NCBI GenBank assembly: GCA_964016885.1
Contig: OZ024747.1
Coordinates: 56,730,001-56,794,000, forward strand
DNA from: Eledone cirrhosa
Taxonomy: Eukaryota
Length of the DNA: 64,000 nt
Direction: 5' to 3'
The notes under the pieces were generated by a model that saw only the letters and a list, made by a program, of their open reading frames with translations, had not been told where the DNA came from and did not search any database. Shown here piece after piece: positions 2,895 to 63,364 of this stretch (positions are counted from its first letter, which is position 1; the number at the start of each line of letters is the position of its first letter). The position numbers were made by a program, and so were the translations under genes.

Positions 2895-3355
2895 TCTTCT
2901 TCTTCTTCTTCTTCTTCTTCTTCTTCTTCTTCTTCTTCTTCTTCTTCTTGCTCCTCCTCTTCCTCCTCCTCCTCCTCCTCCTTCACCCACTTATTCCTAA
3001 GTCCTTAAACACTCCTTCCAGCAAGTCCTATCAGAAGCAATCCTCTCCAACAGATCCAGCCAGATCCCCCAAGCAGGACCAGCCAAGCTCATGGATGTTA
3101 TCCAAACAATTTGCTCAGGGTTTACCTCTGGGTCTGCTGCCAGTTGGTTTTCCCTGTAAAATTTGTCCAGCATTTCTTTCCTGAAAATTTCTAACCACAT
3201 TCTCATACTATTGGAGCTGTGGTCTCCCAATTTGGTGAAGTACTGGCTCTACCTGGAGTGACTCTCAGATCTCTGAGCTACGCACTCTATCGAGTAACAT
3301 TACTCCAAAGGCCCTTCAGAGGGATGCCATTTCAGCCGCTTGTATTCACGATCAT
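2895..3355 (-). mobile_element. RTE-clade LINE 3' fragment with (GAA)n tail
   Basis: Minus-strand peptide ends ASDRTCWKECLRT, near-identical to 36260-36469 (ASDRTCWKEYLRT); followed by GAATAAGTGGG and the (GGA)n/(GAA)n tract. Confidence 0.75.
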
Positions 3356-3393
3356 ATTCTGAAATATATATACATATACTTACATACAAATAA

Positions 3394-3436
<43 letters not shown>

Positions 3437-3527
3437 GAGAGAGAGAGAGAGAGAGAGAGCGAAAGAGTAAGAGAGAGAAAGAGATTGATAAAGAGAAAGT
3501 GATCAGATGAGTGTTTAAAATATAAAA

Positions 3528-3871
3528 TATCATCATCATCATCATCATTTTACGTCCGCTTTCCCCTGCTTTCAAGGGTGGGACGGGAACTGATTCTGGC
3601 TTGATTTCTACAGCTGGATGCCCTTCCTAACACCAACCTCATTTACAGAGAGTGCTGGGTGCTTTTTTGCCGTGGCACCTCCACGACCACTTTGCAGTGG
3701 AATGATAGAGACCCCAGTCCTATCATCTCATTTCTACAGCTGAGTAAACCGGAGCAATGTGAAATAAAGTGTGTTGCTCAAGGAAACAACACATCATCCA
3801 GTCTGAGATTTGAACTCACAACCTTTCGATTGCAAGGACAATGTTCTAACCATTAAGCCATGTGCCTCCAT
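3528..3871 (-). mobile_element. young tRNA-derived SINE, family A (CORE-like body, RTE-type tail)
   Basis: Reverse complement of the ~340-bp unit at 20319, 41542, 53458, 58526 and 62599; A box, B box and (ATG)n tail. Confidence 0.9.
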
Positions 3872-3983
3872 CCAAAATATATACATGTATATGTGTTTGA
3901 GTTAGTGTGCATGTACATATGCATGCAATTTACTTATTTATTCTGTCTTCCCTTGCTATGATGATGATGCAGGTATATAGCAT

Positions 3984-4055
<72 letters not shown>

Positions 4056-5877
4056 CTCATACATATATACATACATATTAATGTATAATCATATGTTTGG
4101 TTGTATGTGTATGAAATATGCACAGCAAATGTTACCTTCACCATTTTCACAGTCAAGTCTCTCCAATCCAATATTCAATTTCCTGTGATTTCATTGAAAT
4201 CTTTTCACCTTCTGTAAAAAGAAATCTAGGTTAGACAATCGAAAACATTAAGGTTACATAGAAACTGTAATTTCTATTCCATTGCCATGATGAAATTGAA
4301 ATAACCAAAGGACAAATTCTTGATGGAATCACGAAACTAACTTGAATCTTGTGAAATTTTTATCTATGTAGATATAGAAAGAAGCAGAATAAATTTAATA
4401 AAGCATTTTTGTGACTTTCTACAGAGAAAATTAGCTATAGAACCAGTTTGGAAATGTAATGAGACTTTTGATAAATAGATATATTTCTGAGTTAAGGAAT
4501 ATTATGGGCTTTCTGTTGAGTAATTACAACTAAATTAAATGCATAAATGAAAACTTAATGCAATTAATGCAAATAACGACTAATCTAATTAACTCTTGTT
4601 GAGATAATCTGAAACTTATGTCTAGTTCATTAACTGTAAGTTGTAATGTAAAAATATTTATTACTATATATTTAATAAAAAAACATTACCTATGCTTTAC
4701 AAATCATTTGGAAAATAATTAAGTATTGGGAGGATTTAGTATATAACTAATTTTCTCCTTATTAAGCTGGTGTTTGTAGCACAAGTTAAACTTAAAAGTT
4801 CTTATATAAAATTCTGATGGAAGATTTTTTTAAATACCAAACCAGCCAAATTTGGCACTGGTTCTATGAAACAAAACCATCGATTATAAAGTGTTCCTAT
4901 TTATATTAAAATCTTCCAACATAATTTTATATAAGTAAAGAAATTAATATTTTTGTAAATTAAAATAGATTGTATTTCATTAAAAGAAATATGGTTACAA
5001 AAGGGTTAAAACAAAGAATGTATATCATAGAAATAAGATTGGTTTCAAGTGGTTTAGTATCAAACTTGTTAAGATACACAAGTAGGGAAGAAAAAGGAAG
5101 AGAAATTAACTGATAGTTCGATAAGGCCAAGGACATAATATTTCCTTTAGTATTTTCATTGCTGATGCTACGTTCTGGTCACAACACCTGCCTGAAGAAA
5201 CAATGTGAAATATAATATTTTGCTCAAGAACAGAATGTGTCACCCAATCCAGGAACTCAATTAGCCACAGAACTAGGAAACAAGGTTACCCTTATAATAT
5301 TTCCGACATGATACTATTTATATATTACACCCTTGTGATGTGGTTGATGAGCAAAAGGAGACAATATAGGTGTAAGTCTTGCCAAGTGCATCTTTCTAGT
5401 AGTGGTACCAACATAAAATTCTCCCATCATTTAATTAGGGTAACAGCCTTCCTAGACATGTCAGGGCACAATAGTTTATGCATAGGTTCTAGCTTTAGCA
5501 TGATTTCTGTCTGGATGCTCTTCATAATACCAAACACTTTACTGACTGTCCAACCTCTGACAGAATGGTCAGTTGGTGCAAAATGCTGGAGGTCTTGATG
5601 ATGAAGGTGCTATATATATATGTGTGTGTGTGCACGCACGTGTGTGTATACATTTATATATATATATATATGTGTGGATGTATGTGTGTGTGTGTGTATG
5701 TATTTATTAGTTGTGTGGTTTTAGAATGAAGCCCTATTCTTCTACAGGACTAGAAATGTTTCATTTGAAAAAAACTCATTGGGGCTTTCCTTATGATTTC
5801 TCTCAAATGAAACAGTTCTAGTTTTGTAGAAGCCATTTCTATATTAAATTGGATATATATATATATGTGTGTGTGTG

Positions 5878-6467: not shown

Positions 6468-6519
6468 ATATATATATATATATATATAGGTGTGTGTGTA
6501 TGTATATATATATACATAT

Positions 6520-6654
6520 AACAAAGAAAATGTGGTAAGGAACCAGATGGACCATAACGCACCAAAGTACTCAATACTTAGGGTAGTAGAGTGGGTAATA
6601 GGAACGAGTAGGACCCCGATGGCTGAGCTCAAGCCGTTTCGACGGCTAATTCTG

Positions 6655-6659
<5 letters not shown>
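6520..6659 (-). mobile_element. short element with the 3' half of a hammerhead ribozyme (copy 1, truncated at stem II loop)
   Basis: Homologous to 19266-19460, 53813-54028 and 63121-63314; minus strand reads AGTCCAGAATTAGCCGTC-GAAA-CGGCTTGAGCTCAGCCA-TC-GGGG. Confidence 0.7.
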
Positions 6660-12809: not shown

Positions 12810-12877
12810 GTTCTTGTCTAGTATTCCAGATTTCCTGTCTTTCTAAAAATATTTCAACTCACTAGATGCTTTAATAT

Positions 12878-12921
<44 letters not shown>

Positions 12922-12990
12922 ATATTAAAGCATCTAGTGAGTTGAAATATTTTTAGAAAGACAGGAAATCTGGAATACTAGACAAGAACT
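12810..12990. repeat. near-perfect inverted repeat centred on (TA)n
   Basis: gttcttgtctagtattccagatttcctgtc...atacaaa (TA)n tttgtat...gacaggaaatctggaatactagacaagaac. Confidence 0.9.
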
Positions 12991-19250: not shown

Positions 19251-19265
19251 TATATATATATATAT

Positions 19266-19459
19266 AGGAACCAGTAAGACCCCGACAGCTGAGCTCAAGC
19301 CGTTTCGACGGCTAATTCTGGAGTCCAGAATTAGCCGTCGAAACGGCTTGAGCTCAGCTGTCGGGGTCTTACTGGTTCCTATTATCCACTCTACTTCCTC
19401 AAGTATTGAGTACTTTGGTGCGTTATGGTCCACCTGGTTCCTTACCACATTTCCTTCGT

Positions 19460-19460
<1 letters not shown>
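19266..19460 (+). mobile_element. half-hammerhead element with ~57-bp-arm palindrome (copy 2)
   Basis: 19266-19322 is the reverse complement of 19324-19380; the arm contains GAAA-CGGCT-tgagctc-AGCTG-TC-GGGG. Confidence 0.75.
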
Positions 19461-19492
<32 letters not shown>

Positions 19493-53795: not shown

Positions 53796-53812
53796 TATAT
53801 ATATATTTATAT

Positions 53813-54028
53813 AATGAAGGAAATGTGGTACAGAACCAGATGGACCATAACGCACCAAAGTACTCAATACTTAGGGTAGTAGAGTGGGTAATAGGAACGA
53901 GTAGGACCCCGACGGCTGAGCTCAAGCCGTTTTGATGGCTAATTCTGGTCTAAATTCTGGACTAAATTTAGTCCCGAATTAACCGTCAAAACGGCTTGAG
54001 CTCAGCCGTCGGGGTCCTACTTGTTCCT
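53813..54028 (-). mobile_element. half-hammerhead element with palindrome (copy 3)
   Basis: Fold-back centred on GGACTAAATTTAGTCC; inverted arm ends at GTTCCT-(AT)n. Confidence 0.75.
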
Positions 54029-54045
54029 ATATATATATATATATA

Positions 54046-57227: not shown

Positions 57228-57270
57228 GTCAAAGCTCTTTCGTCACACATTCTGTGGCCTCCTCAGTGAC
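57228..57270 (-). ncRNA. type I hammerhead ribozyme (left arm of palindrome)
   Basis: Reverse complement of 57385-57427. Confidence 0.72.
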
Positions 57271-57384
57271 TGATTTCTTATTTTGTGTCTCTCCTTTGTT
57301 CTGTCCTACACCATCTTTTTTTTTTTTACACAAAAACAAGATAGTGTAGGACAGAACAAAGAAGAGACACAAAATAAGAAATCA

Positions 57385-57427
57385 GTCACTGAGGAGGCCA
57401 CAGAATGTGTGACGAAAGAGCTTTGAC
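57385..57427 (+). ncRNA. type I hammerhead ribozyme (right arm of palindrome)
   Basis: gtca-CTGAGGA-ggccaca gaatg tgtgac-GAAA-gagc-TT-tgac. Confidence 0.72.
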
Positions 57428-62946: not shown

Positions 62947-62976
<30 letters not shown>

Positions 62977-63060
62977 AAAGGTAAACAGAAATAACAACAC
63001 AATCGGTACAGTATATGGAAGGGATATATTAGGTTAACACTTGATATAGCAGGAAGAGAA

Positions 63061-63095
63061 CCTTAACGTTTCGGACGCTAGTTCTTCATCAGAAG
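63061..63095 (-). ncRNA. minimal type I hammerhead ribozyme
   Basis: ctt-CTGATGA-a-gaac tagc gtcc-GAAA-cgt-TA-agg; palindromic AACGTT; one mismatch in stem II; element spans 62973-63100. Confidence 0.7.
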
Positions 63096-63120
63096 AAAGT
63101 ATATATATATATATATATAT

Positions 63121-63311
63121 AACGAAGGAAATGTGGTAAGGAACCAGGTGGACCATAACGCACCAAAGTACTCAATACTTAGGGTAGTAGAGTGGGTAAT
63201 AGGAACCAGTAAGACCCCGACGGCTGAGCTCAAGCCGTTTCGACGGCTAATTCTGGACTCAGAATTAGCCGTCGAAATGGCTTGAGCTCAGCTGTCGGAG
63301 TCTTACTGGTT

Positions 63312-63314
<3 letters not shown>
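63121..63314 (-). mobile_element. half-hammerhead element with palindrome (copy 4)
   Basis: Fold-back centred on TCTGGACTCAGA; inverted arm ends at GGTTCCT-(AT)n. Confidence 0.75.

Positions 63315-63364
<50 letters not shown>

Follow-up and report, generated by a model that had tools for sequence, protein, structure and literature searches.

An inverted copy with a tail on one side is described as typical of Penelope-like elements (PLEs) in the excerpts of PMC8557442 used here, which also name the origin of the inverted repeats and one-sided tails as an open question. PLE inversions have been attributed to endonuclease cleavage, and no sharp 5' wall is described in the excerpted parts of PMC8557442 and PMC2377424. 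In the only in vitro PLE system, an Anolis element, two internal reverse transcriptase (RT) starts define the tail and both strands are extended, with the steps after priming left unvalidated in the portion of that paper cited here (PMC11167929). Here we analyse 64,000 nt of Eledone cirrhosa DNA (contig OZ024747.1, positions 56,730,001 to 56,794,000 of the forward strand; 'the window'), in which four related insertions are stubs of an abundant PLE. Arms of this family end at two fixed 3' positions, are mostly paired head to head with one end of each kind, and commonly stop at a narrow 5' wall. We consider it probable that these 5'-truncated inserts of an EN+ PLE arise by twin target-primed reverse transcription, with both complementary DNAs (cDNAs) running off a predicted capped RNA start inside the hammerhead ribozyme. 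The pairing of the two 3' ends matches the two RT starts of the Anolis element and the typical PLE architecture as excerpted (PMC11167929, PMC8557442).

Four insertions and their parent element

Positions are counted from C17, the hammerhead cut site, taken as zero (position 3089 of the long locus L033; window 19362 in the insertion beginning near 19266). The four copies that an earlier note on this DNA had recognized are present, with 94-96% identity to the copy at 63121 across a 138-nt arm, and, as it had claimed, each of them retains a type I hammerhead's 3' half while the CTGANGA strand is missing from all four. Three continue into a second, inverted arm with the outer end GTTCCT(AT)n. In the copy at 19266, arm A (19264..19322, minus strand) is a PLE stub from -38 to +20 whose outer end, CCTAT, joins (AT)n, and arm B (19322..19462, plus strand) is a stub from -40 to +100 whose outer end, CGTTAT, joins (AT)n on the other side; arm B holds the half-hammerhead, with the cut site after 19362, plus an 80-nt tail. 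The A at 19322 (-40) would be the first base of the RNA, a reading taken from the DNA itself. A solo arm B, from -41/-40 to +100, lies at 6518..6659 (minus strand) with (AT)n at both ends and no partner arm. The third insertion consists of arm B at 53811..53955 (minus strand, -44 to +100) and arm A at 53966..54030 (plus strand, -44 to +20); the inverted arm is as the earlier note described it, and its account of the junction omitted a 12-nt duplication, which occurs together with an AAATTT overlap. The fourth comprises arm B at 63119..63259 (minus strand, -40 to +100) and arm A at 63260..63316 (plus strand, -36 to +20), and its junction, GGACTC|AGAATT, would fit a cap-templated C common to both arms, ambiguously at this locus. 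The earlier observations are confirmed in part, and the interpretation placed on them is likewise supported in part.

That interpretation began from a hammerhead-bearing retroelement, and this is what the parent proved to be. From its sequence it is an EN+ PLE. Long copies extend 5' into the pseudo-long terminal repeat (pLTR) and an open reading frame (ORF). In L033 a 719-aa frame beginning at +191 is assigned by motifs to RT followed by a C-terminal GIY-YIG domain (YRDD at 348, IY-x11-YIG at 592). Atlas neighbours of this protein (0.96-0.99) carry HTH_animal, GIY-YIG and RVT_1; Pfam and PDB searches with it returned no match. A four-cysteine linker at 572 has a spacing unlike the CX2-5CxxC motif written for Neptune and Nematis in the excerpts of PMC8557442. 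A tandem array of 3,542-bp period (L141/L142) and a partial tandem in L033 display the pLTR-forming tandem organization of PLEs, and 81 of 87 head-to-head pairs combine ends at +20 and +100, giving an inverted, 5'-truncated copy with an 80-nt tail at one end.

Genome counts, made by pattern matching in 3.0 Gb, place the family far above chance, since a 34-mer of the arm has 20,229 exact matches and its reversed control none. The motif +1..+19 occurs 42,893 times, mostly in paired arms. In raw Illumina reads from three runs, loose ends in (AT)n number in the thousands at +20 and +100, opposite-strand joints are present too, and the 19266 junction is spanned by reads and short-read contigs. The palindromes, whose reality had been an open point of the earlier note, are thus present in raw sequencing data and are not artefacts of assembly or of long-read fold-back. 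The family was also found in contigs labelled as other organisms in runs X5 and X6, including an inverted junction in X5.

The long copies carry a native counterpart of the half ribozyme. For L033 2995-3100 the unconstrained minimum-free-energy fold equals the hammerhead-constrained fold (-23.2 kcal/mol), and the predicted structure is that of a type I hammerhead, with its three helices, GAAA and a UH site of cleavage. The 5' strand that the earlier note expected upstream of the apex does exist in long copies, as a U3-A8 variant and never as CUGANGA: UUGAGAA in 70 and UUGAUAA in 10 of 92 parsed copies, CUGANGA in none (108 rows, 16 of them unparsed, with some overlap between rows possible). 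A U3-A8 core has been published for the Schistosoma PLE Cercyon (PMC4209133, in excerpt). Rfam gave no match to the native region at E<=10, and no hammerhead was among the 150 of 346 window matches listed. In its native form stem II is GAUCGGCUA/UAGCCGUC; it carries a 37-nt insert, and a distal hairpin is predicted for it with the loop at -49..-46. The long stem II proposed earlier is therefore not native, being the pairing of an arm with its own inverted copy; nor do the breaks lie at the stem II apex, as -34..-44 falls on the 3' strand of the distal hairpin. At the apex of helix III, in L033 (3075-3083) and in all arms, there is an 8-nt palindrome, TGAGCTCA, as in hammerheads thought to dimerize.

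Other observations concern individual loci. In L142 (3171-6742; contig C1, about 91.489-91.493 Mb), some 65 near-identical tandem copies of a 55-bp ORF segment sit at the junction of the full-unit array with its inverted partner, possibly through reiterative synthesis by RT. In L034, copies of the family flank another element (2909-4928), which differs from it and has a frameshifted RT plus GIY-YIG, and in L004 (contig C1, about 2.989 Mb) the flanks beyond both (AT)n runs are inverted repeats of one another. Two further long, near-perfect palindromes of the window (57239-57416 and 12838-12961) fall outside this PLE family and scored below threshold against microRNA models.

Pairing, the 5' wall and the junction letters

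Among 220 arms, 96 end at +20 and 100 at +100. Both ends read TAT, matching the (AT)n target, so that the TA(T) microhomology suggested earlier for the outer ends holds. Besides the 81 A+B pairs, the 87 comprise two AA, one BB and three joining A to some other end. Within the A+B pairs it is the +20 arm that extends further 5', by 20 nt or more, in 14 cases and the +100 arm in one; we adopted this count because that for an excess of at least 10 nt (19 versus 3) is inflated by four over-extended alignments. The arms do not overlap at all in 4 of the 81. Kilobase-long arms also terminate at +20 and exceed their B partners, as in the long pair of L143, where A extends to about -2630 and B to about -177. 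Asymmetric reach, non-overlap and the long inserts together indicate that neither arm templated the other, and hence that the two are separately RNA-templated cDNAs.

These data bear directly on the mechanism favoured by the earlier note, in which a +100-primed cDNA would fold at the stem II apex, copy itself and end at +20 by TA microhomology. Such a snap-back would give subfamily letters common to both arms, as found in 49 of 54 pairs, and many junctions are indeed near-symmetric, the commonest being drawable as a fold-back with a 4-nt loop; later deletion of the palindrome centre could account for small asymmetries. However, under this scheme the +100 arm should extend no less far 5' than its partner, contrary to the 14-to-1 excess, the non-overlapping pairs and the kilobase A-ended arms. 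This pattern shows that the short arm was not copied from the cDNA of the long one. Moreover, an extra C ends both arms in 14 of the 50 junctions tallied below, the native apex loop does not appear in the junctions listed, and the last 12 nt of the cDNA are predicted to be unpaired. Snap-back is already contradicted for the asymmetric and double-C classes, and we regard it as improbable overall.

Nor does the ribozyme fold alone dictate the architecture, as had been proposed, since a second hammerhead family lacks comparable short palindromes. Its stub at 62975..63100 (minus strand), included for comparison only, has a minimal CUGAUGA hammerhead, and a single (AT)n run lies between it and the 63121 copy. 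The family, which is unrelated to the PLE, has 219 genome matches with at most one mismatch; in 30 loci its 5' ends are scattered with no wall seen, and an inverted partner occurs in 3 of the 30, some 300-420 nt away and in no case as a short palindrome.

A single RNA per event fits best with two further results. Both diagnostic letters are common to the two arms in 49 of 54 pairs, compared with a shuffled mean of 22.6 and maximum of 35. Length class is shared as well: for 50 of 71 wall-crossing insertions a partner was identified, and by hand tally it is long in 42, a B stub in 6 and at the wall in 2 (no partner was found for the remaining 21). The wall-partner rate for long arms is thus 2/50, versus 64% expected under independence.

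As to where arms stop, the 5' breakpoints cluster rather than scatter, as the earlier note had supposed. In 100 arms picked solely by the +1..+19 motif, 64 end at -45..-33, 23 are shorter and 13 extend beyond, and genome-wide, exact 34-mers crossing the wall number 3,233 versus 20,229 just inside it. The modal exact end is A(-40), in 33 of 208 arms, within TTAGTC and 29 nt below TATTTAAA; by resemblance to the initiator and TATA consensus sequences, the first may be initiator-like and the second TATA-like. Restriction-site-associated sequencing read ends at 3056, 3041 and 2997 fall on AATT, look like restriction ends and were excluded from the wall analysis.

The junctions carry a further mark. 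An untemplated 5' G has been taken as a possible cap mark for L1 (PMC9341517). We collected 444 places at which both arms end at -40 with one to three letters between them and tallied the first 50 by hand: a single C/G stands at 28, C on both cDNAs at 14, G on both at none, CC at 1 and native A/T at 7. At -36, 50 tallied of 1,333 places gave one single C/G and no double, so that an extra C is present in 43/50 at -40 versus 1/50 at -36. All 14 double-C junctions belong to A+B (+20/+100) pairs. Genome-wide, 2,929 exact arms have a G at -41 that is not native; among 30 such arms fetched, this G does not derive from the partner's native sequence in 19, and the preceding sequence varies and includes bare (AT)n. 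In 15 of 100 rows of the junction listing an extra G follows an arm ending at -39, possibly through slip-back of RT or a minor start at -36.

Twin priming could be right and the wall could nevertheless be an RT pause, at stem II RNA structure or a bound protein, or an endonucleolytic break in the RNA, the extra C being generic terminal addition. The wall does lie on the 3' strand of the predicted distal hairpin, one junction class away from the wall likewise shows an excess of C, and in unselected loci C precedes -40 ends as often as G does. On the other hand, the AU-rich hairpin is not as strong as stems through which RT passes, the extra C is specific to -40 relative to -36, and long arms pair with long arms when independent pausing would give about 64% wall partners. 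We judge this account unlikely, while granting it more weight than any of the other alternatives.

The wall also resembles a 3' splice acceptor, TTTTCATTTAG|TCC, in which case an upstream exon would end in the extra G; introns close to the hammerhead have been reported in PLEs (PMC4209133, in excerpt). The 30 fetched G-AGTCC arms on which this was tested share no upstream exon: before them stands (AT)n, the partner arm or an unrelated flank, so the splicing account was not supported and seems to us very improbable. Finally, each palindrome might be a non-autonomous unit copied whole, similar to a miniature inverted-repeat transposable element (MITE) or a short interspersed nuclear element. Some junctions recur identically, for example four times among those of the 87 pairs, but junctions are highly varied overall, one and the same junction is found in more than one subfamily and with either A/B orientation, and long inserts have identical ends; copying of a whole unit is accordingly the least credible of the alternatives. 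A MITE in the strict sense, a fixed unit with terminal inverted repeats, was rejected on the variable centre, the asymmetric ends and the RT-encoding parent.

Proposed mechanism and its difficulties

The inserts sit in (AT)n and the parent codes for RT and GIY-YIG. By analogy with the Anolis element in vitro, the nuclease would cut both strands of the (AT)n target, and each target 3' end would prime on UAU in the 5' leader of the RNA, one at +20 and the other at +100; priming at different sites on the two sides would leave the tail on one side only. A single RNA would template both cDNAs, and the RT starting at +100 would have to displace the +20 cDNA, often stalling early behind it. The main RNA would start at A(-40), in the initiator-like motif below the TATA-like one, and RT would run off there, often with addition of an A tail or, opposite the cap, of a C. 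Once trimmed, the 3' ends of the two cDNAs would be joined through 0-4 nt of microhomology, producing the varied apices. Because the long inserts (about 13-16%) have two long arms, they and the tandem copies would stem from a different class of template; this may be read-through or circular RNA, an origin proposed in the excerpts of PMC4209133.

Locus L125 (600-1160) contains three tandem 257-bp units (-43..+213), each beginning at the wall after a T run. They suggest that run-off cDNA can also switch back to the RNA, and retrozyme-like repeats might arise in this way.

Several findings weigh against this mechanism as a whole or in its details. Three of the 87 pairs are AA or BB, and a diagnostic letter differs between the arms in 5 of 54. 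The TATA-like box differs between subfamilies, and, in the excerpts of PMC2377424, D. virilis Penelope is TATA-less, although the Penelope start is placed in the pLTR, in line with the mechanism. A first cap test (C 21, T 1, G 0) was set aside because its control at -36/-39 favoured C too (C 15, T 4). Before the -40 ends of unselected loci (the same 33 of 208 arms) stand G 14, C 15 and A 4 times, so G is common and not dominant. A native-like pyrimidine is kept at -41 in 14,048 arms, partly through T runs resembling A-tailed cDNA; to account for it, there would have to be overlap with the partner, A-tailing or another start near -44. For TTCTG|AGTCC, the most frequent single junction (69 of 100 rows of the junction listing), a tiny fold-back of one capped cDNA would be a further possible origin. 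The sampled loci come mostly from the start of contig C1, and both start site and cap are inferred from scars in DNA.

A wider reading, which we put forward tentatively and with less conviction than twin priming itself, is that the messenger RNA starts inside its own hammerhead, so that the capped RNA carries half a ribozyme and RT would start 60 and 140 nt from the cap. Most events would then yield twin strong-stop cDNAs ligated into palindromes, some 20,000 times; the complete ribozyme would form only on read-through into the next pLTR, and its cleavage or circularization would decide between a stub and a full-length tandem copy. If true, this would give PLE hammerheads a function and would explain PLE inverted repeats and tails by one mechanism.

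Relation to known systems

The element class and the inverted, tailed architecture are already known. In the open-access literature (closed papers and supplements lying outside the search) we found no report for PLEs of twin priming, strong-stop or a cap mark, nor of the wall, a start inside the ribozyme, in vivo twin use of the RT starts or the double-cap junction; the excerpts of PMC13282606 and bioRxiv 10.64898/2026.07.22.740005 added nothing on these junctions. The family is a record of about 20,000 insertion events, in which each target end appears to use its own fixed RT start and the DNA scar would point to the first base of the RNA. Its predictions are precise and could be tested at little cost, namely that one named nucleotide is a capped start and that template class governs product length. 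The mechanism would also account for a large group of short palindromes in the genome, which repeat-annotation pipelines could take for MITEs or microRNA hairpins.

In retroviruses and long terminal repeat elements, priming near the 5' end of the RNA yields a short run-off cDNA, minus-strand strong-stop DNA. The present cDNAs would differ in that target DNA primes them, that they come in twos and that they are left in the genome as a dead end, and neither RNase H nor a transfer RNA primer was seen in this family. In L1 twin priming, reportedly set out by Ostertag and Kazazian in 2001, two target ends prime on one RNA and microhomology joining produces an inversion; its segments do not overlap and its second primer site is variable, whereas here the sites are fixed and the cDNAs usually overlap. 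Non-LTR retrozymes, considered as a candidate, consist of tandem short units each with a complete hammerhead; the present inserts are instead head to head with half a ribozyme, and the tandem units of L125 likewise lack the 5' strand.

Among PLE hammerheads, including that of Schistosoma Cercyon, the excerpts of PMC4209133 describe the same replacement of C3-G8 by U3-A8, the same type I topology in the pLTR, and dual motifs 100-700 bp apart on opposite strands, which recall the present inserts. Unlike those hammerheads as excerpted, helix III here is long (about 6-7 bp) with a palindromic loop, the stem II insert is 37 nt, and the proposed RNA start would lie inside that insert. Poseidon of Anolis carolinensis in vitro shares the two internal RT starts bounding the tail, the cutting and extension of both target strands, the AT-rich target and insertion with no need for hammerhead cleavage (PMC11167929, in excerpt). 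Its starts lie 111-118 nt into the ORF and are non-homologous to the target; those of the present family, by contrast, are located in the 5' leader, share a terminal TAT that matches the target, and serve one side of the insertion each. With EN+ PLEs in general, as excerpted from PMC8557442 and PMC2377424, the family shares the single RT plus C-terminal GIY-YIG frame, tandem pLTRs with a hammerhead in the pLTR, the adjacent inverted truncated copy with a tail at one end, and (TA)n targets. It departs from them in its tail of 80 rather than 30-40 nt, and in that most of its inserts are near-palindromes of 100-200 bp, which have a sharp 5' wall and bear a C/G mark.
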